Shown one piece after another: positions 27,812 to 42,994 of a DNA stretch of 42,995 nt (position 1 is the stretch's first letter; each line of letters opens with the position of its first letter). The notes beneath the pieces were generated by a model. It worked only from the letters and a program-made list of their open reading frames with translations. It ran no database searches and was not told where the DNA came from. The DNA is from Eubacteriales bacterium (GTDB lineage: Bacteria > Bacillota > Clostridia > Oscillospirales > CAG-382): positions 1 to 42,995 of the forward strand of contig JAZSGA010000186.1 of NCBI GenBank assembly GCA_045532495.1, read 5' to 3'. Position numbers and translations under genes: made by a program.

Positions 27812-27932
27812 AGGGGCTGTATCAAACCAGCATGATACAGCCTGAATTATATAAAAAATTCACAAATATTCGTAGGGGACGATGCCCACATCGTCCCGTT
27901 TTTTGGTGCACAATGTGCATTTTGATATAGCC
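27812..27932 (+). repeat. Second copy of the palindrome+REP unit, closed by an inverted terminal motif (MITE-like)
   Basis: GGCTGTATCA/TGATACAGCC hairpin, REP at 27872-27898, TTTGATATAGCC at 27921-27932. Confidence 0.7.
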
Positions 27933-27964
27933 TCAAATTTTTATATTTGCATAAGCCGCGGGGC

Positions 27965-30424
27965 TTACTTTTTAAGTCCGAGATCTTCAATGGACATTTC
28001 GCGCATTTTGTACTTAAGTATTTTTCCTGCCGCATTCATCGGAAACTCTTTCACAAACACAAAGTATCGGGGCACTTTATGGCGGGCGATGGAAGCGTTG
28101 CCGTATTCACGCATTTCGTTTTCGTCGGCGGTTTCGCCCTTATGCAGGATTATCCATGCACAACATTCCTCGCCGTACTTTTCGTCGGGCACGCCAACCA
28201 CCTGCACATCACGCACTTTGGGGTTGGTGAGGTAAAACTCCTCGATCTCACGGGGGTAAAGATTTTCGCCGCCGCGGATAATCATATCCTTAAGGCGTCC
28301 CGTAACCTTAAAATATCCGTCGGGGGTACGGCAGCATATATCTCCGCTGTGCAACCAACCGTCGGCATCAATGGTCTGTGCTGTGGCCTCGGGCATTTTG
28401 TAATAACCCTTCATTATGTTGAAGCCGCGTGCCACAAATTCGCCGTTTTCGCCATCGGGAACTTCAAGACCTGTTTCGGGATCAATAACTTTACATTCCA
28501 CACCGGGGAACGGGCTGCCTACGGTTTCAACACGGTGGTCAAGATCCTCGTTTACCTCGCCCATGGTGCATCCGGGGGATGCTTCGGTCTGACCGTAAAC
28601 GGAAATTATTTCTTTCATGTTCATTTCGTCCGCCGCACGGCGCATAAGGTCGGCAGGGCAGTTGGCACCTGCCATAATGCCGGTACGCATATACGAAAAA
28701 TCGGTTTTTGCAAAATCCGCATGTCCAAACATGGCAATAAACATGGTGGGCACACCGTTAAAACAGGTTATGCGCTCGTTGTTTATACATGCCAGCGACG
28801 ATTTGGGTGAAAAATACGGCATGGGCGAAAGTGTGCCGCCGTGGGTCATGGTGGATGTCATGGAAAGCACCATGCCAAAGCAATGGAACATGGGCACCTG
28901 TATCATCATGCGGTCGGCGGTGGAAAGATCCATTCTGTCGCCTATGATTTTGCCGTTGTTTACAATGTTGCGGTGGGTAAGCATAACGCCCTTGGGGAAA
29001 CCCGTTGTGCCCGATGTATACTGCATGTTGCAAACATCGTCGGGTTTAACAAGGGATGCTCTGCGGCGCACTTCCTCGTGGGGGACAAGGGATGCCCGTG
29101 AAAGCATCTGCTCCCATGTAAGACAGCCTGTCATTGAAAATCCCACGGTTACCACGTTGCGCAAAAAGGGCAGATTTTTGGAATAAAGAGCGTCGCCCGG
29201 CTTTGTCTTTTGCAATTCGGGGCAAAGTTCTTCGATAATTTCACGGTAGTTTATATCCTTGCAGTCCTCTATCATAACAAGGGTATGGGTATCGGACTGA
29301 CGGAGCAGATATTCTATTTCGTGTATTTTATAGGCGGTGTTTACCGTTACAAGCACGGCGCCGATTTTTGTGGTTGCCCAAAAGGTAATAAACCACGCAG
29401 GCACATTTGTTGCCCACACAGCCACATGGTCGCCTGCCTTTACGCCCAGCGATATAAGTGCGGCGGCACATTCATCCACATCCCTGCGGAACTCGGCATA
29501 TGTGCGTGTGTAATCCAGCGTTGTGTATTTGAATACGTACTGGTCGGGGTATTTTTCCACCATGGTATCCAACACATCGGAAAATGTTGCATCGATGATA
29601 TCGTACTTTTTCCAGGGGAAAGTACCTGTTTTTGAACGGTTGTAATATGCCTTGTCACGGTCGGTTTTTTTGCGTCCCAGCGAGGCAATGTAATTTGAAA
29701 AGTGGGTAAGAACTATATCCGCATCGTTTATTTCATCGTTCCATGCGGCACATACATAACCGTCAAAATTGAGGGATGAAAGCGCATTTACAAAGGAATC
29801 CACGGGCAAATCGCCTTCGCCTATAAGCACGGTTTTGCCGTCCTTCATATCGCCAAGGCGTACATATTTGATATATGCGCCCAAATTTTTGATGGTGGTT
29901 TCCGCACTTTCGCCTGCGCCGAAGTGGGTACCGCGCACATTCCATGCGGCACCAAGAACCGCCGACGAAAAGTAGTTTATAACCTCGGTAACGTTTTCGG
30001 TTTCGGAAAGCCAGCCCACGGTTTCAAGCAGAATACGCACATCCGCCTTTTCGGCAAGCTTTATTGCCGCCTGAAGCTTTTCGGCAAGCTTATCAAAGGG
30101 CATTTTTTCCTCGGCGCGGACAATTATCTGCTCTATTCCCGCAGAGCCCGCAAGGGTTACATATTTTGCCACTTCATCAACCAAAGCCTCATCCGTGTGC
30201 AGCGAATGTGGATAATGGAGTGCGGAAACGGCAAGCTGACGGTTTATAAGCTTGCGCTTTGAATCCGCTGTGCGGTCGCTGCGCAAAACACTGTCGTAAT
30301 GCTGTTTGCGCTCCTTTATTGCATCGTATATTTCAAAACCTGCGTAACCGTAATCGTAAGCATAGCGGCAGGTATCTATAAATGTGGCACGGGTGACATT
30401 TTTTGTCGAAAAAACCAGCTTCAT
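27965..30424 (-). CDS. Fusion of a degenerate xylose-isomerase-like TIM barrel and an AMP-forming acyl-CoA ligase
   Basis: C-terminal YTSGTTGFPKG, YGQTE, LHSGD, GRLKDMIIRGGEN and GKILK; N-terminal ~255 aa sugar-phosphate isomerase-like; RBS GAGGAGG before ATG at 30424. Confidence 0.85.
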   Translation of the reverse strand: MKLVFSTKNVTRATFIDTCRYAYDYGYAGFEIYDAIKERKQHYDSVLRSDRTADSKRKLINRQLAVSALHYPHSLHTDEALVDEVAKYVTLAGSAGIEQIIVRAEEKMPFDKLAEKLQAAIKLAEKADVRILLETVGWLSETENVTEVINYFSSAVLGAAWNVRGTHFGAGESAETTIKNLGAYIKYVRLGDMKDGKTVLIGEGDLPVDSFVNALSSLNFDGYVCAAWNDEINDADIVLTHFSNYIASLGRKKTDRDKAYYNRSKTGTFPWKKYDIIDATFSDVLDTMVEKYPDQYVFKYTTLDYTRTYAEFRRDVDECAAALISLGVKAGDHVAVWATNVPAWFITFWATTKIGAVLVTVNTAYKIHEIEYLLRQSDTHTLVMIEDCKDINYREIIEELCPELQKTKPGDALYSKNLPFLRNVVTVGFSMTGCLTWEQMLSRASLVPHEEVRRRASLVKPDDVCNMQYTSGTTGFPKGVMLTHRNIVNNGKIIGDRMDLSTADRMMIQVPMFHCFGMVLSMTSTMTHGGTLSPMPYFSPKSSLACINNERITCFNGVPTMFIAMFGHADFAKTDFSYMRTGIMAGANCPADLMRRAADEMNMKEIISVYGQTEASPGCTMGEVNEDLDHRVETVGSPFPGVECKVIDPETGLEVPDGENGEFVARGFNIMKGYYKMPEATAQTIDADGWLHSGDICCRTPDGYFKVTGRLKDMIIRGGENLYPREIEEFYLTNPKVRDVQVVGVPDEKYGEECCAWIILHKGETADENEMREYGNASIARHKVPRYFVFVKEFPMNAAGKILKYKMREMSIEDLGLKK

Positions 30425-30425
30425 T

Positions 30426-31814
30426 TTATTCCTCCTCAAACACTATCTTGTTGAGAGCGTTTATATATGCACGCACGCTTGCCGCCATAATGTCGGTGGA
30501 GCTTCCGTTGCCTGCATAAAGCTTGCCGTTGTTGCGGAGTCTTACAAGAACGGAGCCAAGCGCTTCCTTGCCCTCGGTAACGGCCTGAATCTGGAAATCG
30601 TCCAGCTCGTAATGGTGGCCGATGCACTGTTCGATGGCACGGAACAAAGAATCCACGGGGCCGTCGCCTGTGCTTACACCGCAAAGCATTTCATCGCCGC
30701 AGCGCAGAGTTACCTGTGACATGGAGCTTGTGAGGTTTCCGCAGTTGGTGGTATAGTTTTCAAGATGATATGTGGAAGGAGCCTGCATTGCAAAGCTGGC
30801 AATAAGGGATTCAAATTCCTTTGCACCCACGGAGCCCTTCTTTTCGCATACCTGCATAAGAGCCTTGTATACGTTGCCGCAATCCTCATCGGAAAGGTCA
30901 TAGCCCAGCACATTTGCCGCCTGGGCAACCTGGGAAATGGTGCTTTCGGAATCAAGCAGTATCTTTTTGCGCTCGCTTACCTGAGCGGCGGTTTCGTATG
31001 CCTGATGGTTTATGCCTGCCAGCATATCCTCAACGCTTGCATGTATTTTTGTGTTTTGAAGTCCTGTGCAGATGCCCAAAACATCGCCGCGGGCGGTAAC
31101 CGCATCGGAAAATTTGCCCACAGAAAGAGCTTCGTTTCCTGCCATGGCGCATTTTATACCTTCTGCACCTGCGGAAATTGCCGCCAGAGCACATGCAACT
31201 GCCATGCCCAGCTTATCGGAAACCTGAACGTAAACGGACACATCCACCGCTTGCTTTACACATTTTACAAGCTGTGCCAGCTCCTCGGGAAGGGCTGTGC
31301 CTGCGGTATCGCAAAGGGTTATCATGCCTGCACCGTTATCTGCCGCCTGCTTTACCGCCGCAACGATAAAATCGGTATCGGCGCGGGTGGCATCCTGCGC
31401 ACAGAATTCCACGTCGTTGCAAAGTGCTTTTGCGGCGGCGCAAAGCTCGCCTATTTTTGCCGCCATTTTATCGGCTTTCATGTGGTAGGTATATTCCATC
31501 TGAACGGTGGAAACAGGCACTTCGATCTGAAGACGGGGATTTGCCGCATCCTTTATGCAGTCCCAGGCATCGCCAACGCCTGCCACATCAAAGCCCACGG
31601 GAACTGCCACGGTGCAATTTGCAAGATTCTGAGCTATTGTTTTGTATATTATGGTATCCTCACGCAGGTTTTTAATGGGCGCAAGCTCCACGGCATCGGC
31701 ACCAAGGGATGCCGCGCAGGAAGCGATGGCAGTTTTTTCACGGAACAGCAAAGAAACTTCACGCTGAGCCGCCAGTGTTTTAAGTGTGATGTCGGTGATG
31801 TTGATTCTTTTCAT
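30426..31814 (-). CDS. LeuA (2-isopropylmalate synthase)-like protein with degenerate active site and intact allosteric domain
   Basis: Aligns by eye with LeuA (VEF..QDATR, DTAG, GDGPVD, STDIMAAS) but lacks the RDGEQ, HxH and GERAGN motifs; RBS GGAGG. Confidence 0.8.
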   Translation of the reverse strand: MKRINITDITLKTLAAQREVSLLFREKTAIASCAASLGADAVELAPIKNLREDTIIYKTIAQNLANCTVAVPVGFDVAGVGDAWDCIKDAANPRLQIEVPVSTVQMEYTYHMKADKMAAKIGELCAAAKALCNDVEFCAQDATRADTDFIVAAVKQAADNGAGMITLCDTAGTALPEELAQLVKCVKQAVDVSVYVQVSDKLGMAVACALAAISAGAEGIKCAMAGNEALSVGKFSDAVTARGDVLGICTGLQNTKIHASVEDMLAGINHQAYETAAQVSERKKILLDSESTISQVAQAANVLGYDLSDEDCGNVYKALMQVCEKKGSVGAKEFESLIASFAMQAPSTYHLENYTTNCGNLTSSMSQVTLRCGDEMLCGVSTGDGPVDSLFRAIEQCIGHHYELDDFQIQAVTEGKEALGSVLVRLRNNGKLYAGNGSSTDIMAASVRAYINALNKIVFEEE

Positions 31815-31889
31815 TTTCTAAAACCTCCGTTTGTTGTTTGCGGTAAAAATTTTGCAACGCTGATGTGGAGAACAAGGGTACATATTGTA

Positions 31890-32160
31890 TAAAAAAAACG
31901 CCCCCGTCTCATTGAAAACCAAAGAGACGAAAGCGTAAAAAGCAAAACTTCCGCGGTACCACTCTTCTTCACCAAAAAGGTGCACTTTGATGCAAACACA
32001 TCTTAACTCTGTTACGGGAGTACCCGTCTGCCCCTACTGGAGAAAATTCACGGCAGCCGCTCCGCGGTGAGTTCTGTAAAATTCCGCCCACTGCCTTGCA
32101 GCAACCGGCAGCTCTCTGAATGGGGGAAAAGCACATACTATTCCGCATCATTGCGTTTGT
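31890..32160 (-). ncRNA. Leu T-box riboswitch
   Basis: AGAGAG and GCTG stem-I motifs, specifier GAA-CTC (CTC at 32069-32071), T-box AGAGTGGTACCGCG (31952-31965), terminator ending GAGACGGGGGCGTTTTTTTT. Confidence 0.9.
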
Positions 32161-32179
32161 AATTGGAATTAATGGAACG

Positions 32180-32208
32180 ATTATAGCACGCAAAAACCCG
32201 TTTGTCAA
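32180..32208 (-). promoter_or_regulatory. sigma-A promoter of Leu T-box operon
   Basis: Perfect TTGACA-N17-TATAAT with TG extension. Confidence 0.9.
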
Positions 32209-32247
32209 GGGATTTTTTAATTTTTTTAACTTTTTTTGCAAAACCCC

Positions 32248-32292
32248 TTGACAAAATGCGCATTTAACTGTATTATCTGTAATAGTACAGTT
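32248..32292 (+). promoter_or_regulatory. Promoter of the GntR-ABC operon with YtrA-type operator over the -10
   Basis: TTGACA (32248)-N17-TATTAT; palindrome AACTGTATTA-N7-TAGTACAGTT at 32266-32292. Confidence 0.8.
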
Positions 32293-32317
32293 AATACATA
32301 CGAAAGGGGAATGATAA

Positions 32318-32710
32318 ATGTTTCAGCTTGATCTTGGCGATCACCGTCCAATTTATGAGCAGATCAAAGAAAAGCTCAAATTTCTTATCATCGGCGGAAG
32401 CCTTTCCGACGGCGATAAAATTCCATCGGTGCGTGAGCTTGCCGTAAGCATGGCAATAAACCCCAACACCATCCAAAAAGCTTACAAGGAGCTGGAAAGC
32501 GAGGGTTACATACACTCGCAAAAGGCAAAAGGCTATTTTGTTTCGCCACGAAGCGAGGCCGAAAAGTCGGATACCGGTGAGCTTATGGCACGCTTTACCG
32601 ATGCATCCCGCGAGCTTATGTATATGGGCAAAACCTACGCCGAGCTTTGCGGAATTCTTGAGCAGATTTACAAAGGAGGTAACAGTAATGGAAATGACAA
32701 CGCAGAATGA
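32318..32710 (+). CDS. GntR family regulator, YtrA subfamily
   Basis: PIYEQI, IPSVRELA, INPNTIQKAYKELE; 130 aa; precedes an ABC transporter. Confidence 0.9.
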   Translation: MFQLDLGDHRPIYEQIKEKLKFLIIGGSLSDGDKIPSVRELAVSMAINPNTIQKAYKELESEGYIHSQKAKGYFVSPRSEAEKSDTGELMARFTDASRELMYMGKTYAELCGILEQIYKGGNSNGNDNAE

Positions 32711-33626
32711 CACCATGATAAGTGCCGTAAACGTGACCAAAACCTTTGATGGTTTCCGTGCGCTGGATAACTTAAGCCTTAACGTAAAAAAAGGCTCGGT
32801 TTACGGTCTTGTGGGGCCAAACGGTGCAGGCAAAACCACCTTTATAAAAGCCCTTATGGGCGTTTACCGTGCCGACAGCGGCGAAATGATGCTTGACGGC
32901 AAGGTTATTTACGAAAACGAGCAGGTAAAAAGCCGCATGATATATGTTTGCGACGACTTGTTTTTTTACCCCACCTATACCATAGAGCAAACAGCAAAAA
33001 TGTATGCGGATATTTACCCCAAATGGAGCTGGGAGCTTTTTAACAAGCTGCACGAAATATATAAAATGGATCTTAAGCGCAAGGTCATACGCCTTTCAAA
33101 GGGTATGCAAAAGCAGGTGGCTTTTTGGCTCGGAATATCTGCCCAGCCCGATGTTATGATACTGGATGAGCCCATTGACGGACTTGACCCGGTAATGCGC
33201 CGCAACACATGGCGCCTTGTGCTTAATGAGGTGGCAGAGCGTGGCATGACAGTGCTTATTTCCAGCCACAACCTGCGCGAGCTTGAGGATGTATGCGACC
33301 ACGTGGGCATAATGTTTGGCGGAAAAATGGTTATAGAAAAATCGCTGGACGATGTAAAAGGCAATATCCATAAAATTCAGCTTGCCTTTGAAAAAGGCGG
33401 CAGCGACGAAAAGCTTGCGCAGCTTGAAGCAAAGCTTGATATACTTCACACAGGCCGTATGGGCAGCGTTGCAAGCCTTATTGTAAAAGGCGATATCGAC
33501 GAGGTGCGCAGGGTTATTACGGAATATTCGCCCGTGGTATTTGATATAATTCCGCTTACGCTTGAGGAAGTGTTTATTTACGAACTGGGAGGTATGGGTT
33601 ATGAGTTTGAAAACATCCTTATCTGA
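32688..33626 (+). CDS. ABC-2 type transporter ATP-binding protein (YtrB-like)
   Basis: GPNGAGKTT, LSKGM, ILDEP, SSH; RBS AAGGAGG before ATG at 32688. Confidence 0.9.
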   Translation: MEMTTQNDTMISAVNVTKTFDGFRALDNLSLNVKKGSVYGLVGPNGAGKTTFIKALMGVYRADSGEMMLDGKVIYENEQVKSRMIYVCDDLFFYPTYTIEQTAKMYADIYPKWSWELFNKLHEIYKMDLKRKVIRLSKGMQKQVAFWLGISAQPDVMILDEPIDGLDPVMRRNTWRLVLNEVAERGMTVLISSHNLRELEDVCDHVGIMFGGKMVIEKSLDDVKGNIHKIQLAFEKGGSDEKLAQLEAKLDILHTGRMGSVASLIVKGDIDEVRRVITEYSPVVFDIIPLTLEEVFIYELGGMGYEFENILI

Positions 33627-35697
33627 AAAGCCCGTTTCACGTGCTCTTATAAAATCCGATCTGCGCAACCACTGGCCATGGCCCGTTGTGGCGTTTGTTA
33701 TAATGCTTTTAAACTTCATGGCGGCAACGGATTCTTATTACCGCATGGATATTGTAAAAGTAACACGCTTTACAAACGATTTTACCTTCACATATTTTGC
33801 AATGTGCGTTTACGGTCTTTTTGTGGGCACAAAGCTGTTTATGTATTTGGATAAAATAAACTCCGTTTCATGCATGCACGGCCTGCCTTTTTCAAGGCTT
33901 AAGCTTTATCTTTCCCACATTTGCTCCGGCTGTATTCTTATGTTTGCACCAGCCGTTGCAACATCGCTTATAATCCTTGTTTCACGCACGGTGCCCGCAG
34001 AATATGCCTTTATGTTTTTGGTTTCCTGCATTATTTATGCATCCATGGCATTTGCCGTGGCGGTATTTGCCATGACAGTATGCGGAAACATGGTGGTTTC
34101 CGTACTGTTTTCGCTGGCCATTGCCATTTTCCCTGCGGCAATACTTGCTTTTTCCGTATATATTTGCAATATGAATCTTTACGGCTATGCGGAGCCCGAG
34201 CTGCTTGAGCAGATAATGTATTTTCTTTATGTTATGCCCGATAAGCTGTTCCCATGGCGGTTTGCCATATATCTTGTGGCGTCGCTGGGCTTCCTTGCGG
34301 CAGGCTATGCCGTTTACCGTGTACGTCCGTTGGAAAACTGCGAGGAGGTTGTGGCTTTCAAAAAACTGCGCCCCATGTTTATTTACGCCGTGGGCCTGGT
34401 TACGGGTATGATAAGCTACTTTTTCTTCTGCAGCATACTTGACGGCACATCCGTTATGTATATGCTGCCCCTGGGACTTGTGGGTGTTGTAGCCGCAGTT
34501 ATGATAGCACGCAAAACCGTATCGCTTAAAGGTTCGGGGCGCCATGTTATAATATACACCGCCGCAGTTACAGCTATTATGCTGTGCATGCAGTATGATA
34601 TAACAGGTTACGAAACCCGTGTGCCCGATGCCGATAAAATAGCGTATGCCGAAATCAACGGCGGCATAGGTTCAGGCTCCCGTTATTACCGCGATTTTGA
34701 ATTCAGATACGATTCTCTGCCCGAAAACCGCCTCACCGAGCTTAATGAGCTGGAGGCTCTTACTCAGCTGCACGCAGCATACGCATCCGAGCATGACAGA
34801 ATCCACCTGCACACCAACAGCATTTTCGGAATGTATAACCGTGATAATATTGAGATCACATACAAGCTCAAAAACGGCACGGTGATGAAGCGCCGTTACG
34901 ACGGACTTTCCGTGGAAAACTTTGACAAATACATGCTTCCCTTCCTCAACCTTGAAAAGGTAAAATCGTGGCAGTATCCTCTTATCGACAGCACCGCCAA
35001 GGAAATACTTTCCGCCGCAGTATATGACAGCAGAATCCAGAATGCGGCAAAAGGCTTTGAGGCAGCGGATGCCGTTATACTTTACGATGCATTGTGTGCC
35101 GATATCCGCTCTTTGCCCGTGGATAAACTTTATTCAAGGGGCAAAATAACCGTTGATATCGAGTATTATGTGCCCGGTACCATAATTGCAACGGGCATAC
35201 GTCCCAAAGGCATGCAGCAAAAACGCGCATACGGTACGGAAACAAGTATAAAGATCAACGAAAACTATACCCACACCCTGGCGGCACTAAAAAGGCTGGG
35301 CTACGATATAACAAATCCCAAAGATTTTGAAAAAGTAAAATCGGCGGTGGTTTCGAATATAACGGAAAACGAACAGTATTATTATGACAGTGTTATCGTT
35401 GAGGAAACCACATCCTTCCCCATGGCTGCGGTTACCGAGGAATATGTAAAATATGCCGATGAATACGGTAAGGATTATACCGTTGTTACCGACAGAGCCG
35501 ACCTTGAAAAGCTTTATGATCTTTGCGGAAAAGGCTTTATGGGCAACGCGCAAGTGGAGGATTTTGAAAAGCTTGAGGTTTATATCATATCTCTCCGCGA
35601 TGAAAACGATAAGGAAATTTTCGGCAGCGAATTTGTTGTTATCCACGATAAACTTCCGCAAACGCTGAAAAAATATTTCCTGCAGCCGCAGAAATAA
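33601..35697 (+). CDS. ABC transporter permease with large C-terminal soluble domain
   Basis: Multiple TM segments in the N-terminal half, HGLPFSR motif; RBS GGAGG before ATG at 33601. Confidence 0.75.
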   Translation: MSLKTSLSEKPVSRALIKSDLRNHWPWPVVAFVIMLLNFMAATDSYYRMDIVKVTRFTNDFTFTYFAMCVYGLFVGTKLFMYLDKINSVSCMHGLPFSRLKLYLSHICSGCILMFAPAVATSLIILVSRTVPAEYAFMFLVSCIIYASMAFAVAVFAMTVCGNMVVSVLFSLAIAIFPAAILAFSVYICNMNLYGYAEPELLEQIMYFLYVMPDKLFPWRFAIYLVASLGFLAAGYAVYRVRPLENCEEVVAFKKLRPMFIYAVGLVTGMISYFFFCSILDGTSVMYMLPLGLVGVVAAVMIARKTVSLKGSGRHVIIYTAAVTAIMLCMQYDITGYETRVPDADKIAYAEINGGIGSGSRYYRDFEFRYDSLPENRLTELNELEALTQLHAAYASEHDRIHLHTNSIFGMYNRDNIEITYKLKNGTVMKRRYDGLSVENFDKYMLPFLNLEKVKSWQYPLIDSTAKEILSAAVYDSRIQNAAKGFEAADAVILYDALCADIRSLPVDKLYSRGKITVDIEYYVPGTIIATGIRPKGMQQKRAYGTETSIKINENYTHTLAALKRLGYDITNPKDFEKVKSAVVSNITENEQYYYDSVIVEETTSFPMAAVTEEYVKYADEYGKDYTVVTDRADLEKLYDLCGKGFMGNAQVEDFEKLEVYIISLRDENDKEIFGSEFVVIHDKLPQTLKKYFLQPQK

Positions 35698-35715
35698 TAT
35701 AATAAGGCAAAACAA

Positions 35716-35742
35716 AAGGGCAAGCCGCACGGTTTGCCCTTT
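35716..35742 (+). terminator. Terminator-like hairpin after the ABC operon
   Basis: AAGGGCAAGCCG-CA-CGGTTTGCCCTT with a short T tail. Confidence 0.6.
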
Positions 35743-35847
35743 GCCGTCATTTTGCGGTATACGGCAAAGTAACTACTGCTTTTTATGGACTCCGGATATG
35801 CCAAAACCTTGAAAAATGTGAATTTTTTAAAAAATATTAATTTGGGG

Positions 35848-35876
35848 TTGACAAATCAAAACGGCGGTGGTATAAT
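35848..35876 (+). promoter_or_regulatory. sigma-A promoter of leader-ilvE-vor operon
   Basis: Perfect TTGACA-N17-TATAAT with TG extension. Confidence 0.9.
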
Positions 35877-35909
35877 ATTCGACATATTAATAAAGGAGAA
35901 GTACCAACA

Positions 35910-36023
35910 ATGGCCTCGGCAGTTAATTTCGGTATAATTTGCATCGGCTTTATTATCGCTATTATTATTGCAATTGCAGTCATTATTAACAGCAATTCGG
36001 ATAGCGCTATTTGTCGTGCATAA
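35910..36023 (+). CDS. Putative Ile-rich attenuator leader peptide, 37 aa (MASAVNFGIICIGFIIAIIIAIAVIINSNSDSAICRA)
   Basis: RBS AAAGGAG 11 nt upstream, 12 Ile codons, located between the promoter and a terminator upstream of ilvE. Confidence 0.7.
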   Translation: MASAVNFGIICIGFIIAIIIAIAVIINSNSDSAICRA

Positions 36024-36071
36024 AACCGTAAATTACTAATTGGTTCTACCTTTAATTCTACAGTAATTTTT

Positions 36072-36101
36072 AGGCTTGCGGCATTTAGCTGCAAGCCTTT
36101 T
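36072..36101 (+). terminator. Attenuator terminator upstream of ilvE
   Basis: AGGCTTGCGGC-ATTTA-GCTGCAAGCCT followed by TTT, ending just before the ilvE RBS. Confidence 0.7.
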
Positions 36102-36125
36102 ATAATTTAATCGGAGGAATTGAAA

Positions 36126-37196
36126 ATGCTTGACATTAAAATCCAGAAGAATCCCGCGCCCAAGGCAAAGCCTGCGGACGAAACAAAGCTTGGCTTCGGC
36201 AAAGTGTTTACCGACCACATGTTTATTATGAACTACACCGAAGGCACCGGCTGGCACGATGCACGCATCGTTCCCTACGCACCCATAAGCCTTGAACCTT
36301 CCGCAATGGTTTTCCATTACGGTCAGGAAATGTTTGAAGGCCTTAAGGCTTACCGCGGAAAGGACGGCAAAAGCCGCCTGTTCCGCCCCGACATGAACGC
36401 AAAGCGTGCAAACGAATCCAACCGCCGTCTTTGCATCCCGGAGATCCCCGAAGAAGATTTTGTTCAGGCAATAAAAGCCCTTGTTAAAGTTGACGAGGAC
36501 TGGATCCCCACAGCAGAGGGCACATCCCTTTATATCCGTCCCTTTGTTATTGCAACCGATGAATTTTTGGGTGTTGCTCCTTCAAAAACCTACCTTTTTA
36601 TTATAATACTTTCTCCCAGCGGAGCATACTACGCTTCCGGCCTTGCACCCGTTGGTATTTGGATCGAAGACGAATACGTGCGTGCGGTTAAGGGCGGTAT
36701 CGGCTACGCAAAAACCGGCGGCAACTATGCAGCCAGCCTTAAGGCTCAGGTTAAGGCGCATGATGACGGCTATTCCCAGGTGCTTTGGCTTGACGGTGTT
36801 GAAAGAAAGTACATTGAAGAAGTTGGCGCAATGAACATCTTCTTCAAGATCGACGGAAAAATCGTAACCCCCATGCTCAACGGCAGCATACTTCCCGGTA
36901 TAACACGCAACTCGGTTATTCACCTTTGCAAATCCTGGGGTATGGAAGTTGAAGAACGCAGAATCTCTGTTGACGAGCTTATCGAAGCCCAAAACAACGG
37001 CAAGCTTGAAGAATGTTTCGGCACAGGTACAGCCGCAGTTATATCCCCCGTTGGCAAGCTCCGTTACAAGGACGAGGTTATGACCATCGGCGATGGCGGC
37101 ATCGGAACCACCAGCCAGAAGATATACGATACCGTAACAGGAATTCAGTGGGGCACCTCCGAAGACAAGTTCGGCTGGTCTGTTGTTGTTGAATAA
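36126..37196 (+). CDS. ilvE: Branched-chain amino acid aminotransferase
   Basis: FGKVFTDHM, HYGQEMFEGLKAY, KTGGNY, EEVGAMN, LPGITR, GTGTAAVISP; GGAGG 8 nt before ATG at 36126. Confidence 0.95.
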   Translation: MLDIKIQKNPAPKAKPADETKLGFGKVFTDHMFIMNYTEGTGWHDARIVPYAPISLEPSAMVFHYGQEMFEGLKAYRGKDGKSRLFRPDMNAKRANESNRRLCIPEIPEEDFVQAIKALVKVDEDWIPTAEGTSLYIRPFVIATDEFLGVAPSKTYLFIIILSPSGAYYASGLAPVGIWIEDEYVRAVKGGIGYAKTGGNYAASLKAQVKAHDDGYSQVLWLDGVERKYIEEVGAMNIFFKIDGKIVTPMLNGSILPGITRNSVIHLCKSWGMEVEERRISVDELIEAQNNGKLEECFGTGTAAVISPVGKLRYKDEVMTIGDGGIGTTSQKIYDTVTGIQWGTSEDKFGWSVVVE

Positions 37197-37864
37197 TGAA
37201 GCGCATAACAATTTTTGCCGGCCATTACGGCAGCGGCAAAACCAATGTGGCTGTAAATTATGCCCTGGGCATTGCGGGCGAGGGCAAAAAGGTTTCACTT
37301 TCCGACCTTGACATTGTAAACCCCTACTTCCGCTCCAAGGACAGCGAAAAGCTGCTGCGTGATGCAGGCATACGCTTTATATCGTCGGAATACGCAAACT
37401 CCAATGTGGATGTGCCGGCACTTCCGCCGGAAGCATATGCCGTAACCGCCGATAAAACCGCCTTTGCCGTGGTGGATGTGGGCGGCGATGACAGGGGCGC
37501 TTTGGCGCTGGGCAGATACGTGCCCGATATCCTTGCCGAAAACAGCTACGAAATGCTTTTTGTTATAAACAAATTCCGTCCGCTTACACGGGATGCGGCA
37601 AGCACCGTGGAGGTAATGCGTGAGATCGAGCAGGCGGCAAAAATAAAATTTACCGGCATAGTAAACAACTCAAACCTTGGTGATGAAACCACGGCAGATG
37701 ATGTTATCGCATCGTTGGATTATGCGGAACAAGTTTCCGCCGCCACAGGGTTGCCCATAAAATTTACTTCCGTTCATCACACTCTTGCGCCGCAGCTTGA
37801 CGGAAAAATTCCGGATATATTCCCCATAAAGCTGTATATACGTCAGTCCTGGGGAACCGTTTAA
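37196..37864 (+). CDS. Uncharacterised P-loop NTPase (MinD/ParA/CobQ-like)
   Basis: GHYGSGKT, DLDIVNPYFRS, DVGGDDRGA; TAATG overlap with ilvE. Confidence 0.75.
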   Translation: MKRITIFAGHYGSGKTNVAVNYALGIAGEGKKVSLSDLDIVNPYFRSKDSEKLLRDAGIRFISSEYANSNVDVPALPPEAYAVTADKTAFAVVDVGGDDRGALALGRYVPDILAENSYEMLFVINKFRPLTRDAASTVEVMREIEQAAKIKFTGIVNNSNLGDETTADDVIASLDYAEQVSAATGLPIKFTSVHHTLAPQLDGKIPDIFPIKLYIRQSWGTV

Positions 37865-37895
37865 AAAGTTATTATTACCGAAAGGAACAATAATT

Positions 37896-38099
37896 ATGGC
37901 AAAAGTTACATTTAACGAGGATCTTTGCAAAGGCTGCGGTCTTTGCGTGGGTGCTTGTCCCAAAAAAATTGTAAAGCTTAAAACCGAAATCAACATCAAG
38001 GGTTACAACCCTGCCCATGTTGAAGATCAATCCGCATGTATAGGCTGCGCTTTCTGCGCCACCATGTGCCCCGACTGTGTTATAACAGTTGAAAAGTAA
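37896..38099 (+). CDS. 2[4Fe-4S] ferredoxin-like delta subunit of 2-oxoacid:ferredoxin oxidoreductase
   Basis: CKGCGLCVGACP and CIGCAFCATMCP. Confidence 0.9.
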   Translation: MAKVTFNEDLCKGCGLCVGACPKKIVKLKTEINIKGYNPAHVEDQSACIGCAFCATMCPDCVITVEK

Positions 38100-38117
38100 T
38101 CCAAGGAGGAACATAAA

Positions 38118-39185
38118 ATGTCAGATAAAGTCTTGATGAAGGGCAACGAAGCCCTTGCGGAAGCTGCCATTATGGCAGGCTGCCGCCATTATTTCGGTTA
38201 TCCCATTACTCCCCAAACCGAAGTTGCGGCTTACATGGCCAAGAGAATGCCCAAAATTGACGGCGTTTTCCTTCAGGCAGAAAGTGAAATTGCCGCTATC
38301 AATATGGTTATAGGCGTTGCCGCCACCGGCAAACGCGTTATGACATCCAGCTCATCCCCCGGAATTTCGCTTAAGAGCGAAGGTATTTCCTACCTTGCAG
38401 GCTGCGATCTGCCTGCTCTTATCGTAAACGTACAGCGAGGCGGCCCCGGTCTTGGCGGCATCCAGCCTTCTCAGGCAGATTACTTCCAGGCAACCCGCGG
38501 CGCAGGCCACGGCGATTTCCATTTGCTTGTACTTGCACCTGCTTCTGTTCAGGAAATGGTAAATCTGGTGTTCAAGGGCTTTGACCTTGCCGAAAAATAC
38601 AGAATGCCTGCCATGATCCTTTCCGACGGTACCATGGGACAAATGATGGAACCCGTAAGCCTTGATACGCTTCCCATCAACGAATATGATAAATCCTGGG
38701 CTCTTACCGGTACAAAGTGCCAGCGCAAGCCCAACATTATAAACTCCCTTTGCCTTAAGGCAGAAGAGCTTGAACGCTTAAACATTGAGCGTTACCAGCG
38801 TTACGCCGAGGTGGAAAAGAACGAAGTAATGTACGAAGAATATCGCATGGAAGATGCCGAAATATGCATCGTTGCCTTTGGTGTTGCGGCGCGTGTTTCG
38901 CAGAATGCCATCGATAAGGCACGCGAGCAGGGCATAAAAGTGGGCATGATCCGTCCCATTACCCTGTGGCCTTTCCCCAAAAAGGCGCTTTGCGATGCGG
39001 CAGATAAAGTTAAATCCTTTATTTCCGTTGAGCTTTCCATGGGCCAGATGGTAGAAGATATTGAACTGGCTATCCGCTGCAAAAAGCCCGTTACCCTTTG
39101 CTCCAGAGTGGGCGGTATGATTCCCTCCACCGAAGATGTTCTTGCAAAGATTTACGAGGCAAATTCCACAGGAGGTAACAACTGA
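38118..39185 (+). CDS. vorB: Branched-chain 2-oxoacid:ferredoxin oxidoreductase alpha subunit (VorB-type)
   Basis: MKGNEALAEAA, YPITPQ, QAESE, SSSSPG, RGGPGLG. Confidence 0.88.
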   Translation: MSDKVLMKGNEALAEAAIMAGCRHYFGYPITPQTEVAAYMAKRMPKIDGVFLQAESEIAAINMVIGVAATGKRVMTSSSSPGISLKSEGISYLAGCDLPALIVNVQRGGPGLGGIQPSQADYFQATRGAGHGDFHLLVLAPASVQEMVNLVFKGFDLAEKYRMPAMILSDGTMGQMMEPVSLDTLPINEYDKSWALTGTKCQRKPNIINSLCLKAEELERLNIERYQRYAEVEKNEVMYEEYRMEDAEICIVAFGVAARVSQNAIDKAREQGIKVGMIRPITLWPFPKKALCDAADKVKSFISVELSMGQMVEDIELAIRCKKPVTLCSRVGGMIPSTEDVLAKIYEANSTGGNN

Positions 39186-39943
39186 TGACAACTGTATTTA
39201 AAAAACCCGAGGCTCTTACCGATGCACCGCTTCATTATTGCCCCGGCTGTACCCACGGTATTATTCACAGACTTGTTGCCGAAGCCATTGACGAGCTGGG
39301 CATAAGAGGCAGAACCTTTGGTGTTGCTTCTGTCGGCTGCTCGGTATTTACTTACAACTACTTTAACTGCGATATGGTTCAGGCGGCTCACGGCCGTGCA
39401 CCCGCAGTTGCCACCGGCGTTAAAAGATCCGATCCCCAAAACAACATCGTATTTACATATCAGGGTGACGGCGACCTTGCCGCCATCGGTACCGCCGAAA
39501 CAGTTCATTCCGCTGCCCGCGGCGAAAACATTACCGTTATTTTCGTTAACAACGCAATTTACGGTATGACAGGCGGTCAGATGGCACCCACCACGCTTCC
39601 CGGTCAGGTTACACAAACATCTCCTTACGGCCGTGATGTAAACACCGTTGGTTACCCCGTTAAGGTTTGCGAAATGCTTTCCAAGGTGGACGGTGCCACA
39701 TACCTTGAACGTGTTGCCGTTAATAACGTTAAAAACGTGCGTGCCGCAAAGGCTGCCATTAAAAAGGCTTTCCAGAATCAGATCGAAGGCAAGGGCTTCT
39801 CTTTGGTAGAAGTACTTTCCACCTGCCCCACCAACTGGGGTATGACTCCCGATAAAGCCCTTAACTGGCTTGAAGAAAACATGATTCCTTATTACCCCTT
39901 AGGCGTATACAAGGACAAGTACGCAGAAAGCGAGGTAAAATAA
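39185..39943 (+). CDS. 2-oxoacid:ferredoxin oxidoreductase beta (TPP-binding) subunit
   Basis: HYCPGCTHG, HGRA, QGDGD...NN, YGMTGGQ, CPTNWG. Confidence 0.9.
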   Translation: MTTVFKKPEALTDAPLHYCPGCTHGIIHRLVAEAIDELGIRGRTFGVASVGCSVFTYNYFNCDMVQAAHGRAPAVATGVKRSDPQNNIVFTYQGDGDLAAIGTAETVHSAARGENITVIFVNNAIYGMTGGQMAPTTLPGQVTQTSPYGRDVNTVGYPVKVCEMLSKVDGATYLERVAVNNVKNVRAAKAAIKKAFQNQIEGKGFSLVEVLSTCPTNWGMTPDKALNWLEENMIPYYPLGVYKDKYAESEVK

Positions 39944-39944
39944 G

Positions 39945-40481
39945 ATGACAACTCAAATACTTTTTGCAGGCTTTGGCGGCCAGGGTATTCTTTTCTCGGG
40001 AAAATTCTTGGCATACGAGGGCTTGCTTGCCGATAAAGAAGTAAGCTGGCTTCCCTCATACGGCCCCGAAATGCGCGGCGGTACAGCCAACTGCAGCGTA
40101 ATTATAAGCGATACAAAGATCGGCTCTCCCATCGTTACCGAGCCCGATGTACTTATCGCCATGAACCTGCCCTCCCTTGACAAATACGAGGGCGACACAG
40201 CAAAGGGCGGCAAAATTTTTGTTGACAGCTCGCTTATTTCCAAAAAGGTTGAAAGAACCGACGTTGAAGCATATTATATTCCTGCCACAGCGTTAGCGTC
40301 CGAAAGCGGACTTACAGGCCTTGCAAATATGATCATGCTGGGCTACATTATCAAAAAAACCGGCATTATGCCCATCGAAAACATCGACAGAGCTCTGGCA
40401 AAGGTGGTTTCTGCAAGAAAACAGGATCTTCTCGGCGCCAACAAAAAGGCTCTTGAGCTGGGTTATAACTACGCCGAATAA
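39945..40481 (+). CDS. 2-oxoacid:ferredoxin oxidoreductase gamma subunit
   Basis: [27 protein letters not shown]. Confidence 0.9.
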
Positions 40482-40517
40482 TTTATATTAAAAAAATACT
40501 TATGGAGGAACTTTACG

Positions 40518-41072
40518 ATGAATGATCAGCTTAAAGATATAGGCATGCGTCTTGCCTGCATCCGTGAGGACTGTGAAATGACCGATGTACAATTGGCCGA
40601 AAAGCTGGGTGTTGATATTGACACCTATCGCTCATATGAAAAAGGAGAGATCGATTTTTCGTTCAGCTTTGTTTACAATGCTGCCGAAATTCTCGGCGTG
40701 GATGTGCTTGATATTATAAGCGGATCTTCTCCCACTCTCTCCACCTGTTGTATGGTTAAAAAAGGCAGAGGCTATTCTGTTAAACGCGAGGAAGACTACG
40801 ATTACAAGCACCTGGCGTACACCTTTAAAAACAAAAAGTCCGAGCCTTTCCTTGTAACCATCACCCCCGAAGAAAAAGCTCCCGTGCTCCACGGCCACGA
40901 AGGACAGGAGTTTAACTACATCCTTGAAGGAAAAATTACCTTCTACATTGGTGAAATTTGCTACGAGCTTGAAGAGGGCGACAGTGTTTATTTTGATTCC
41001 ACCGTGCCCCACGCCATTAAAACCACCGACGATAACCCTGCAAAATTTATTGCAGTGGTGGTTAAAAACTAA
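40518..41072 (+). CDS. XRE-family HTH regulator with C-terminal cupin domain
   Basis: N-terminal HTH (YEKGE), HEGQEFNYILEG and GDSVYFDSTVPH. Confidence 0.9.
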   Translation: MNDQLKDIGMRLACIREDCEMTDVQLAEKLGVDIDTYRSYEKGEIDFSFSFVYNAAEILGVDVLDIISGSSPTLSTCCMVKKGRGYSVKREEDYDYKHLAYTFKNKKSEPFLVTITPEEKAPVLHGHEGQEFNYILEGKITFYIGEICYELEEGDSVYFDSTVPHAIKTTDDNPAKFIAVVVKN

Positions 41073-41105
41073 AATTTCCACTTACTGAAAGAAGGTACAA
41101 TTCCA

Positions 41106-42800
41106 ATGGCAATATACGAAAAATTTGTGGGCGCCAGCCGTGACGATTTCCTTTCGCTCAAGGATGCCCAGAAAAACTACAAACTCACCTGGAACGAGGA
41201 TTTTAACTTCGCCTATGACGTTATGGACGAGCTTGCCCGTACAAAACCCGATAAGCTTGCCATGCTTTGGGTTTCCCGCGAGGGCGAAGAAAAACGCTTT
41301 ACGTTCCACGATATGATGATATACTCCAACAAGGTGGCAAATTATCTGCGCTACCTGGGTGTTAAAAAAGGCGATAAGGTTTTGCTTGTTATGAAGCGCA
41401 GCCACTATTTTTGGCACACCGTTATGGCATTGCATAAAATCGGTGCCGTTATGGTGCAGGCAACCTTTATGCTTACCCCCAAGGAATACGTTTACCGCTG
41501 TAACAAGGCAGGCATAAAATATGCCATCCTCACCGGCGACGGCAACTGCACCGAGCAGTTTGACGAGCGTGCGGACGAATACGAAACAGTAGTAAAAAAG
41601 ATGGTTCTCGGCCACAAAAAGGCAGAGGGCTGGCTGGATTTTGAGGACGGTGTTGCCACCGCCAGCGATGAATGGACAAGACCCACCGGCAAGGATGCCA
41701 TCTATGCCAACGACACATCCATCCTTGGCTTTACATCCGGCACAAACGGTTACCCCAAAATGGTTTTCCATGATTTCCGCTACCCCTTGGGCCACATCAT
41801 GACAGGTGTTTTTTGGCACCGTGTTGTGGACGGCGGTTTGCATTTTACAATTTCCGATACCGGCTGGCTTAAATCGCTGTGGGGCAAAATGTACGGTCAG
41901 TGGTTTGGTGAATCCGCCGTGCTGGTTTACGATTTTGATAAGTTTGATGCGCAGGATATTCTTTCCAAGCTGGAAAAATACAAGGTTACCACCTTCTGCG
42001 TACCCCCCACAATGTACCGTCTGCTTTTGCAGCAGGATGTAAAGAGCTATGATCTTTCATCGCTCACCCATTGCTGTACTGCAGGTGAGGCGCTTAATCC
42101 CGAAATTTTCAACAAATGGAAGGAAGCCACAGGCCTTGAGCTTTATGAGGGCTTCGGTCAGACCGAAACCACCCTTTGCGTTGCCACCATCTACCCCTGG
42201 ACAAAGCCCGTTCCCGGTGCCATGGGCCTGCCCGTGCCCGGTTTTGATGTACATATCCTGGGTGATGACGGCGAAAACGTGCCCCACGGTACCAACGGCG
42301 AGATCTGCATACGCACATTAAGCTCCGACAGACACCCCTGCGGCCTTATGCGCTCCTACAACGAAAGCGCAGAGGATACCGACAGAGCAATTTATCAGGG
42401 CTACTACCACACAGGTGACGTGGCATACCGTGATGAATTCGGTCTTTACCGCTACATCGGCAGAAACGATGACGTTATCAAGTCCAGCGGCTACCGCATA
42501 AGCCCGTTTGAAATCGAAAGCGTTATGCTTGAGCACCCTGCGGTGTTTGAGGTTGCGGTTACAGGCGTTCCCGATCCCGTGCGCGGCTTTGCCGTTAAGG
42601 CAACAGTTGCTCTTGCCGAAGGCTATGAGGGCAGCGATGAGCTTACCAAGGAGCTGCAGACCTACGTTAAAAAGAATACCGCTCCCTATAAATACCCCCG
42701 CGTTATCGAATACGTTAAGGCGTTGCCCAAAACATTTAACGGCAAAATCCGCCGTGTTGAAATACGTAACAGCGATCAGCAGAAGTACGAAAATAAATAA
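41106..42800 (+). CDS. AMP-forming short/medium-chain acyl-CoA synthetase (ACSM/MACS-like)
   Basis: FNFAYDV, FTSGTNGYPKMV, SDTGW, GFGQTET, YHTGD, IKSSGYRI, PYKYPR, GKIRR. Confidence 0.9.
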   Translation: MAIYEKFVGASRDDFLSLKDAQKNYKLTWNEDFNFAYDVMDELARTKPDKLAMLWVSREGEEKRFTFHDMMIYSNKVANYLRYLGVKKGDKVLLVMKRSHYFWHTVMALHKIGAVMVQATFMLTPKEYVYRCNKAGIKYAILTGDGNCTEQFDERADEYETVVKKMVLGHKKAEGWLDFEDGVATASDEWTRPTGKDAIYANDTSILGFTSGTNGYPKMVFHDFRYPLGHIMTGVFWHRVVDGGLHFTISDTGWLKSLWGKMYGQWFGESAVLVYDFDKFDAQDILSKLEKYKVTTFCVPPTMYRLLLQQDVKSYDLSSLTHCCTAGEALNPEIFNKWKEATGLELYEGFGQTETTLCVATIYPWTKPVPGAMGLPVPGFDVHILGDDGENVPHGTNGEICIRTLSSDRHPCGLMRSYNESAEDTDRAIYQGYYHTGDVAYRDEFGLYRYIGRNDDVIKSSGYRISPFEIESVMLEHPAVFEVAVTGVPDPVRGFAVKATVALAEGYEGSDELTKELQTYVKKNTAPYKYPRVIEYVKALPKTFNGKIRRVEIRNSDQQKYENK

Positions 42801-42802
42801 TA

Positions 42803-42832
42803 AAAAAGCCACGGTTAAACCCGTGGCTTTTT
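42803..42832. terminator. Intrinsic terminator of the ilvE-vor operon (likely bidirectional)
   Basis: AAAAAGCCACGG-TTAAAC-CCGTGGCTTTTT. Confidence 0.85.
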
Positions 42833-42877
42833 CTATGTTCCCGGTTGCAATGCGATGGAGGCAAAAAGTTGGTACAA

Positions 42878-42994
42878 TCAATCTTTGTAAAAATCAGCTT
42901 TGCTTGCAAACTCATAGTTGGAGTTGCCAAGCAGGGCACGCGGTACCCACTTGTGCGTACTTGTTGGGAAGCACCCCAAACCCTTTAACAATTT
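42878..42994 (-). CDS. Possible 3' end of a gene entering from beyond the window
   Basis: Frame open from the window edge (...RALLGNSNYEFASKADFYKD*) converging on the terminator; too short to identify. Confidence 0.3.
   Translation of the reverse strand, partial: KLLKGLGCFPTSTHKWVPRALLGNSNYEFASKADFYKD

Follow-up and report, generated by a model that had tools for sequence, protein, structure and literature searches.

A candidate regulon for making branched-chain amino acids from branched short-chain acids in an Eubacteriales bacterium, each amino acid having a ligase and an RNA sensor of its own

The stretch of DNA analyzed here (the window) is the 42,995-nucleotide contig JAZSGA010000186.1 (C44 in our numbering) of the Eubacteriales bacterium assembly GCA_045532495.1, a metagenome-assembled genome (MAG) of 2.43 Mb in 279 contigs that is ca. 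80% complete. Two operons located between positions 27,965 and 42,800 of the window, each containing an acyl-CoA ligase gene and each preceded by its own RNA control element, can be read, with a probability of roughly 0.72, as belonging to a salvage regulon in which branched short-chain acids are turned into branched-chain amino acids. In the proposed scheme, a separate AMP-forming ligase for each acid would form the CoA thioester; the acyl-CoA would then be reductively carboxylated to a 2-oxoacid by a VorB-type 2-oxoacid:ferredoxin oxidoreductase (VOR), and the 2-oxoacid would be transaminated to the amino acid by an aminotransferase, IlvE, both of these enzymes being shared. Each ligase gene would be induced when the amino acid at the end of its own route runs short. 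A leucine T-box (specifier CUC) would control a LeuA homologue and a TIM-barrel/ligase fusion acting on isovalerate; an attenuator with an isoleucine-codon leader would control ilvE, an ATPase gene, the VOR genes, an XRE-cupin gene and a gene of an MbcS-like ligase acting on 2-methylbutyrate; and a valine T-box (GUA) on another contig would control a ligase that is fused to helix-turn-helix (HTH) and cupin domains and acts on isobutyrate.

The two operons, with a ligase gene in each, had been described in an earlier note made from the letters of this DNA, and all of the elements listed there were recovered at or near the same positions. The first operon, on the minus strand, was said to be controlled by a Leu T-box, and the Rfam search bore this out: the T-box model RF00230 matched positions 31920-32160 over its entire length (model positions 1-219 of 219) with 121.6 bits against a gathering score of 93, and this was the sole Rfam match in the window. 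The leader together with its terminator and U-run occupies positions 31891..32160 and lies downstream of a σ70-type promoter (32180..32208) that matches the TTGACA-17-TATAAT consensus at 12 of 12 positions and carries a TG before the -10 hexamer. The specifier reads GAA-CUC-A, a leucine codon; the UGGU box that pairs with the tRNA discriminator region, UGGUACCGCG, belongs to the UGGN class (GUGGUACCGCG), and the 3′ part contains a CGUCUC...GAGACG hairpin followed by U8. T-boxes turn genes on when the cognate tRNA is uncharged, i.e., during starvation for the amino acid, and the leader would accordingly be expected to act as a terminator/antiterminator switch responding to uncharged leucine tRNA. 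A terminator-like hairpin with a 10-pair stem and a T-run (27815..27842, minus strand) ends the operon.

The first gene behind the T-box (30426..31814, minus strand) codes for a 462-aa protein in which Pfam recognises an HMGL-like barrel (97 bits) and the LeuA regulatory domain (LeuA_dimer, PF08502, 108 bits, positions 4-130 of 131). The protein stays well below the curated LeuA models (253 vs. 532 bits for TIGR00973 and 237 vs. 599 bits for NF002086) and is ca. 50 residues shorter than they are. When it is aligned to solved LeuA structures, the DTTLRDGEQ motif becomes DITLKTLAAQ, with Lys-Thr in place of the Arg-Asp pair, and the HxH motif becomes QxS. For comparison, we used the best 80 loci out of at least 596 confirmed relatives of the fusion found in a scan of species-representative genomes. 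Alignments of the LeuA homologue and of the fusion contained 38 sequences, i.e., the window and 37 of the 74 loci in which both genes are full length (every second locus in the ranking by identity). The catalytic Arg-Asp pair and a histidine at either metal position were found in none of the 38 members of the family, as the earlier note anticipated when it suggested that a catalytic leuA would be missing. Averaged over columns, identity reaches 0.83 in the regulatory domain, where 35 of 132 columns are invariant, and 0.70 in the barrel, where 27 of 230 are. As judged by these replacements, the protein, referred to below as pseudo-LeuA, is a pseudoenzyme that has lost catalysis.

The stop codon of pseudo-LeuA is 1 nucleotide away from the ATG of the second gene, and the two genes stay together in relatives: a tblastn search placed pseudo-LeuA directly 5′ of the fusion in 77 of the 80 loci, the other three having no upstream DNA (annotation based on open reading frames (ORFs) found it in 75 loci; the tblastn count is used here). 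The second gene (27965..30424, minus strand) lies in an ORF of 824 codons (27965-30439); with the likely ATG start at 30424, it encodes an 819-aa protein in which a xylose-isomerase-like TIM barrel (AP_endonuc_2, residues 25-236) is fused to an acyl-CoA ligase (AMP-binding and AMP-binding_C, residues 293-806) with intact ligase motifs. The best NCBIfam match is PRK12583 (676 bits vs. a cutoff of 832). We propose, from sequence and regulation, that the fusion is an isovalerate-CoA ligase. Thousands of relatives are present in metagenomes of gut and rumen Clostridia. In public records the fusion and pseudo-LeuA go under the names "AMP-binding protein" and "hypothetical protein", and the latter is also the NCBI label of close relatives of pseudo-LeuA. 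In five related genomes (G004, G006, G014, G056 and G090) the match to the TIM-ligase gene is interrupted by one in-frame stop (TAG, TGA or TAA), which may reflect either a pseudogene or an error of assembly.

A speculative role for pseudo-LeuA is that of a leucine-sensing subunit of the isovalerate ligase: by binding the TIM domain of the fusion, it would impose leucine feedback on isovalerate activation. The predicted complex of pseudo-LeuA with the TIM domain scored 0.54, while the best control scored 0.01; at least 82% of contacts agreed between runs, and the pLDDT (predicted local distance difference test) value of the partner was at least 84. The mark applied to such scores is passed by 58 of 80 solved complexes and by 2 of 110 mismatched pairs, and those that pass it at 0.60 or below comprise just 7 of the 80 solved complexes and both mismatches, so that the support given by a score of 0.54 is weak.

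The TIM domain could also be an enzyme in its own right. It matches PF01261 with 52.1 bits (gathering score 31.1), its model is well folded (pLDDT 88.8), and the nearest solved folds are ketose epimerases (template modelling (TM) score ca. 0.75, 13-18% identity), the best match in the PDB being UlaE (3cqj; TM score 0.75, 14% identity). Beyond this, a sequence search of the PDB gave weak matches only, the atlas returned generic AP_endonuc_2 clusters, and the fold search led no further than the superfamily. Residues E134, R189, D192 and H241 are invariant, and an acidic pair at 230-231 is conserved. One may thus suppose that pseudo-LeuA and the fusion act on a leucine precursor other than isovalerate, with the TIM domain, which resembles ketose epimerases and dehydratases and keeps its invariant polar residues, serving as a genuine isomerase, epimerase or dehydratase. 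Against this, N162 and R189 stand where the canonical metal-binding Asp and His are expected (as judged from one weak pairwise alignment and the strand positions of the model), pseudo-LeuA lacks catalytic residues, and carboxylation of isovalerate requires no extra enzyme: the merged operons described below add just ilvE, the VOR genes and a ligase gene. We therefore regard an alternative leucine precursor as unlikely.

The second operon, on the plus strand, was described in the earlier note as lying behind an Ile-rich leader, and this stands. Downstream of another σ70-type promoter (35848..35876; TTGACA-17-TATAAT, 12 of 12 positions, TG before the -10 hexamer) there is an ORF of 37 codons (35910..36023), preceded by a GGAG ribosome-binding site 11 nucleotides before the ATG. 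Its translation, MASAVNFGIICIGFIIAIIIAIAVIINSNSDSAICRA, contains 12 isoleucines, 2 valines and no leucine, and by isoleucine fraction it ranks first among 11,060 ATG-started ORFs of 25-60 codons in the genome. A terminator with an 11-pair stem, 7 of the pairs being GC, and a T-run (36072..36108) is located directly 5′ of ilvE; it is the top-scoring terminator of the region, the hit itself spanning 36072-36098, and it is conserved, with compensatory changes, across an alignment of seven leaders (the window and six merged-operon loci). A promoter, a short ORF with Ile codons and a terminator thus precede the first gene, as would be expected of a leader-peptide attenuator.

The six merged-operon loci combine, in one operon, genes of pseudo-LeuA, the TIM-ligase, IlvE, the ATPase, VOR, the XRE-cupin protein and the ligase. 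The T-box is absent from all six; instead, a homologous leader with 4-5 Leu and 6-7 Ile codons, arranged as ILLLIAIIIL and followed by a terminator, precedes the operon. Since the leader gains Leu codons where the Leu genes join the operon, it is likely to be a codon-sensing attenuator, and the fusion is likely to serve leucine supply; we consider this the strongest single argument both for the attenuator and for the leucine role. The seven aligned leaders share a conserved stem in which CGCUAUU, within the run of Ile codons, pairs with AAUAGCG, which falls on the codons of the conserved residues NSA. The segment TTTGTCGTG (i.e., UUUGUCGUG) is invariant in all seven leaders, and CTGCGGCA (i.e., CUGCGGCA) is identical in the six merged loci, the window reading TTGCGGCA (i.e., UUGCGGCA). 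These two conserved segments could pair as an antiterminator.

The Ile-rich ORF might instead encode a small membrane peptide or not be translated at all, in which case the operon would be controlled through constitutive termination or by the XRE-cupin protein. Being hydrophobic, the peptide might be membrane-spanning, the operon does encode an HTH regulator, and the minimum-energy fold of the leader region lacks a clear antiterminator. What makes this explanation doubtful is the location of the ORF between a perfect promoter and a terminator directly 5′ of ilvE, its first rank by isoleucine fraction, the appearance of Leu codons in homologous leaders exactly where the Leu T-box is missing, and the conservation of codons at the C-terminal end of the leader, which is explained by RNA pairing with the Ile-codon run. 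We infer that attenuation at the leader controls the operon.

The genes behind the leader code for the shared steps of the proposed pathway. IlvE, a type II branched-chain aminotransferase (36120..37196, likely ATG start at 36126), is above the cutoffs of its models (509 vs. 307 bits for NF009897 and 420 vs. 250 bits for TIGR01123). The four subunit types of a VorB-type oxidoreductase are encoded by consecutive genes: delta, a 2x[4Fe-4S] ferredoxin-like protein matching Fer4 families and 2-oxoacid:ferredoxin oxidoreductase (OFOR) delta models (37896..38099); alpha, of the VorB type, with POR_N and PFOR_II domains and 540 bits against a cutoff of 399 for NF005507 (38118..39185); beta, the thiamine-pyrophosphate-binding subunit with the TPP_enzyme_C domain (39185..39943); and gamma, matching Pfam POR with 133.6 bits (39945..40481). 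While alpha exceeds its cutoff, the beta, gamma and delta subunits are recognised by Pfam and match NCBIfam models, among them the OFOR beta models, below cutoffs. The substrate range of the enzyme and the carboxylating direction are proposals. The last gene (41106..42800) encodes a 564-aa short-chain acyl-CoA ligase whose best NCBIfam match is MbcS (NF047394, 410 bits against an equivalog cutoff of 850). It is followed by a hairpin with a 13-pair stem and T-runs (42802..42833) at the end of the operon.

Between ilvE and the VOR genes lies a gene (37196..37864) of a cysteine-free CbiA/MinD-like P-loop NTPase (Pfam CbiA, 25.5 bits). In 24 of 29 loci from diverse Bacillota (L088-L116) the corresponding gene is found directly upstream of vorD-vorA-vorB, and the protein is present in 198 of 301 sampled Bacillota genomes; its genomic distribution suggests that it is a general partner of this type of VOR. 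No NCBIfam match was found, the PDB matches cover the P-loop alone and the atlas returned generic CbiA/MinD clusters; a role in maturation or assembly is a guess. A NifH-like electron pump was ruled out, as the translation contains no cysteine. In some genomes the protein is a part of open frames of 680-830 aa.

The gene of the XRE-HTH/cupin protein (40518..41072; HTH_3 and Cupin_2) precedes the ligase gene. In the window and in the merged loci these two genes are separate, whereas in T-box-controlled relatives they form one polypeptide: in most relatives the XRE-HTH/cupin part is fused to the ligase N-terminus, giving proteins of 755-820 aa with HTH, Cupin_2 and AMP-binding domains. For two of them, encoded at L019:10775-13087 and L019:13424-15730, all three domains were confirmed by Pfam. 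In joining an enzyme to a domain that binds DNA, they are reminiscent of bifunctional ligase-repressors, e.g., BirA.

The pairing of RNA sensors with genes was examined in the 80 loci. A nhmmer profile made from 15 Rfam-confirmed T-boxes retrieved 119 T-boxes, for each of which the specifier column of the alignment and the first downstream gene were recorded. CTC was read in 61 of the 119, and 60 of these stand before pseudo-LeuA; other T-boxes before pseudo-LeuA have CTG (one), CCC (two) or an alignment gap at the specifier column (one). T-boxes before HTH-cupin-ligase fusions read ATC, an Ile codon (25 cases), or GTA, a Val codon (15 cases). Twelve T-boxes (seven ATC, three GTA, one CTC and one CTG) are at a locus end or have no gene in reach, and three, with TCC, TTC and an unreadable specifier, precede other AMP-forming ligases. 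The GTA-controlled ligase gene is followed by ilvE and/or the ATPase gene in 13 of 15 cases. Relatives, then, have separate ligases under Ile and Val T-boxes. As to linkage of the Leu and Ile genes, in at least 27 of the 80 loci the retrieved flanking DNA includes ATPase or VOR genes, and in nine loci ilvE directly follows the fusion, giving a single operon; the co-occurrence of the two operons, which the earlier note proposed to profile, thus takes the form of adjacent or fused operons in related genomes.

The division into two ligases and two sensors made in that note has to be revised, as there are three of each. A 2.2-kb contig of the same genome (C9, 2202 nucleotides) carries a GTA (Val) T-box followed by an HTH-cupin-ligase gene. 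This gene is cut off by the start of C9, and a ligase fragment that matches it begins at the end of another contig (C28, 2011 nucleotides); the two fragments probably belong to one gene split by assembly. In a tree of 48 ligase domains, both fall inside the clade of Val-T-box ligases (SH-aLRT, the Shimodaira-Hasegawa-like approximate likelihood ratio test, 96), while the 564-aa ligase of the window and the ligases of merged operons form a separate long branch outside it. The regulator labels require 5 changes on this tree compared to a mean of 19.7 after shuffling. A ligase under an Ile T-box was not found in the genome of the window. Since there is a separate ligase with a Val sensor, the Ile-controlled ligase of the window is more likely to be the enzyme for 2-methylbutyrate alone, and we propose it, on this comparative ground, as a 2-methylbutyrate-CoA ligase.

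MbcS of Staphylococcus aureus is reported to activate 2-methylbutyrate and isobutyrate selectively and to handle isovalerate poorly (PMC10026030). The first property would suit ligases similar to MbcS where the sensor is for Ile or Val, and the second would fit the presence of a different, PRK12583-like ligase family under the Leu sensor.

The note also proposed checking the genome for the absence of ilvBNCD and leuBCD, and the search agreed with its expectation. No match to ilvD, KARI_C or ilvB was obtained in the 80%-complete genome; the same held for five relatives of 91-99% completeness (KARI_C, 0 of 5), while 14 control genomes each matched all three. Genes of the leuCD type were not found in the 80%-complete genome or in the near-complete relatives. 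The sole aconitase and Iso_dh (isocitrate/isopropylmalate-type dehydrogenase) genes stand together on contig C157, beside another HMGL-like gene, and we read this cluster, from its gene content, as a probable citrate-synthase-type route to 2-oxoglutarate. Each of the five near-complete relatives has one aconitase of ca. 650 aa. Their HMGL-like genes are of three kinds, i.e., the neighbour of the aconitase, pseudo-LeuA and a partial match, presumably of the oxaloacetate-decarboxylase type; in one relative two kinds only were seen, and another has in addition a weak fourth match below the cutoff. With the caveats of completeness, the organism appears to be devoid of the canonical ilv/leu pathway, in which case salvage would be its only route to these amino acids.

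In the family at large, ilvD was present in 32 and absent in 62 of 94 genomes with the fusion (4 of the 94 match its ligase part alone), and it was present in 24 and absent in 3 of 27 genomes without it; since these 121 genomes are mutually related, the counts are descriptive and do not amount to a statistical test. Within the genus of the window, the fusion is found in all nine relatives and ilvD in one only, whose genome is 58% complete.

The same enzymes could in principle run in the opposite direction. IlvE and VOR would then oxidise amino acids to acyl-CoAs, the ligases would work in reverse or in detoxification, and the outcome would be acid production of the Stickland type. Both IlvE and VOR belong to families whose reactions are reversible in principle, and related oxidoreductases make branched acids. 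A study that deals with microbiome-derived molecules from gut Clostridia (10.1101/401489) can be cited on the same side. T-boxes, however, act on uncharged tRNA, which is the opposite of what catabolism would need; AMP-forming ligases conserve energy poorly; and the canonical biosynthetic genes were found neither in this genome nor in its five near-complete relatives. Induction by starvation, which T-box control implies, fits a biosynthetic flux, and we consider the catabolic direction highly improbable.

Alternatively, the ligases could mainly supply branched acyl-CoA primers for membrane fatty acids, as MbcS does, with a secondary amino acid role or none. MbcS is indeed the closest curated family of the plus-strand ligase, and the two roles are not mutually exclusive. 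Still, control by tRNA charging, with one sensor per amino acid, fits the demand of protein synthesis, the ligase genes share operons with ilvE and the VOR genes, and the de novo pathway was not found in this genome or its near-complete relatives; we consider primer supply as the main function unlikely.

A number of points weigh against the salvage regulon as proposed. The substrates of the ligases are deduced purely from regulation: the ligase domain of the fusion fits only a generic family, and below its cutoff, and for the 564-aa enzyme MbcS is, by bit score, the closest family without membership being reached. The many invariant polar residues of the TIM domain may mean, as far as conservation tells, that it is a catalyst rather than a docking domain, and the score of its predicted complex with pseudo-LeuA lies in the weak range. 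The minimum-energy fold of the leader region (z = -3.4) contains no explicit antiterminator. In the window, ilvE and the VOR genes, which would be needed for all three amino acids, lie behind a leader with an isoleucine signal only. With ilvD present in 32 of 94 fusion genomes, the system is no strict replacement of the canonical pathway. Two T-boxes with the specifier CCC, a Pro codon (L008:2587-2831 and L015:6314-6553), depart from the Leu pairing; they could stem from a shifted alignment or a variant of sequencing, or the change could be real. The MAG, 80% complete and split into 279 contigs, limits all claims of absence. Lastly, Aragorn reported 30 tRNA genes, tRNA-Val(UAC) included, and did not find tRNA-Leu(GAG) or tRNA-Ile(GAU) in the 80%-complete MAG, though tRNA absences in such an assembly are uninformative.

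A related arrangement was observed for an aromatic amino acid. At L028:4150-6189, a Phe T-box (UUC) precedes genes of a PaaK-like ligase (534 bits vs. a cutoff of 646) and of a 143-aa protein with a pair of ACT domains. In the genome of the window, C157:20916-26207 contains genes of an AMP-forming ligase, iorA-like, iorB-like and paaK-like proteins, the last being 61% identical to PaaK of L028. The gene order suggests that the same acid-to-amino-acid salvage logic may apply to phenylalanine. The logic parallels that of known iorAB and paaK clusters for aromatic 2-oxoacids and arylacetates, while the substrates and the oxidoreductase differ from those of the branched-chain system, and the cluster lies outside the window.

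The L028 case makes amino-acid-binding partners for ligases more plausible: the ACT protein next to the Phe-controlled PaaK and the cupins of the ligases for Ile and Val may act in the way envisaged for pseudo-LeuA. In a tentative extension, which we hold to be less probable than not, the regulon would be modular, each ligase being gated twice by its end product, once through an RNA sensor of tRNA charging (a T-box or a leader peptide with matching codons) and once through a dedicated amino-acid-binding module (dead LeuA for Leu, cupins for Ile and Val, and an ACT pair for Phe).

The separation of ca. 4 kb between the operons given in the earlier note holds, but the gap is not empty: it contains a divergent unit (32318-35697) of a GntR-family regulator, an ATP-binding cassette (ABC) ATPase and a 711-aa membrane protein for which no Pfam match was found. 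This unit is not kept beside the system in related loci. Positions 357-26110 are occupied by ordinary housekeeping genes, e.g., those of a PBP transpeptidase, DUF3810, a gltD-like oxidoreductase, a CCA-adding/poly(A) polymerase-family enzyme, SpoIID, Mfd, ThrRS and a class I/II aminotransferase (24944-26110). Rfam reported no T-box in the region upstream of thrS.

A metatranscriptome run (X1) contained 11% of the sampled words. Of 1598 X1 contigs compared with positions 27900-42900, 1179 were only 90-95% alike; a few near-identical pieces of 200-330 nucleotides fell on ilvE, vorA, the XRE-cupin gene, the ligase gene and the ABC gene. Since these pieces are contigs and the library may have contained DNA, they demonstrate neither transcription nor termination in the leader.

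The chemistry proposed here, from acid to acyl-CoA, 2-oxoacid and amino acid, is the same as in reductive carboxylation by rumen anaerobes and methanogens, for which the classical labelling work is reportedly that of Allison and co-workers. That route was defined by labelling, whereas in the present case a specific gene set is proposed, in which every amino acid has its own ligase and RNA sensor. As stated in PMC7356843, leucine can be derived by direct carboxylation of isovalerate followed by amination. MbcS feeds fatty acid synthesis; the ligase of the window, in contrast, is linked to ilvE and the VOR genes under amino acid sensors, and in most relatives it is fused to HTH-cupin domains. 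The Leu T-box resembles known T-box leaders in its full-length model match, specifier loop, UGGN box and terminator. T-boxes usually control ilv/leu genes, synthetases and transporters, while those described here control acyl-CoA ligases and a pseudoenzyme, and three specifiers (Leu, Ile and Val) would split one salvage pathway by substrate. Pseudo-LeuA shares the HMGL-like barrel and LeuA_dimer domain with LeuA and differs from it in the loss of catalytic residues and in being always paired with the TIM-ligase.

Leader-peptide attenuators occur in the ilv and leu operons of enterobacteria. Another is the attenuator peptide, rich in Leu, of the ilv-leu operon in S. aureus (PMC5794164). The leader of the window shares with such attenuators a promoter, a short ORF with regulatory codons and an intrinsic terminator before the first gene. 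It differs from them in that it precedes a salvage operon and in that its codons track the downstream ligases, being Ile only in the window and Leu plus Ile in the merged operons. The physiology has long been known; a search of full-text literature found no description of the gene system, the regulatory partition or the pseudoenzyme.

Branched-chain volatile fatty acids have long been known to promote the growth of anaerobes from rumen and gut as growth factors, and ruminants receive them in feed under the name "isoacids". To our knowledge, it is poorly defined which genes convert them to amino acids and how these are controlled, and the system described here offers three candidate substrate-specific ligases. 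It also offers a natural swap of sensors, T-box for leader peptide, with amino acid specificity kept, and points to an unstudied P-loop partner of VOR across Bacillota. If the proposed role of pseudo-LeuA is true, a biosynthetic enzyme would have been exapted as an allosteric subunit of the enzyme that replaces its pathway. The system is common, with at least 596 relatives of the fusion in species-representative genomes and the fusion in 94 of 121 sampled family genomes, and its recognition would change auxotrophy predictions for many gut Clostridia.

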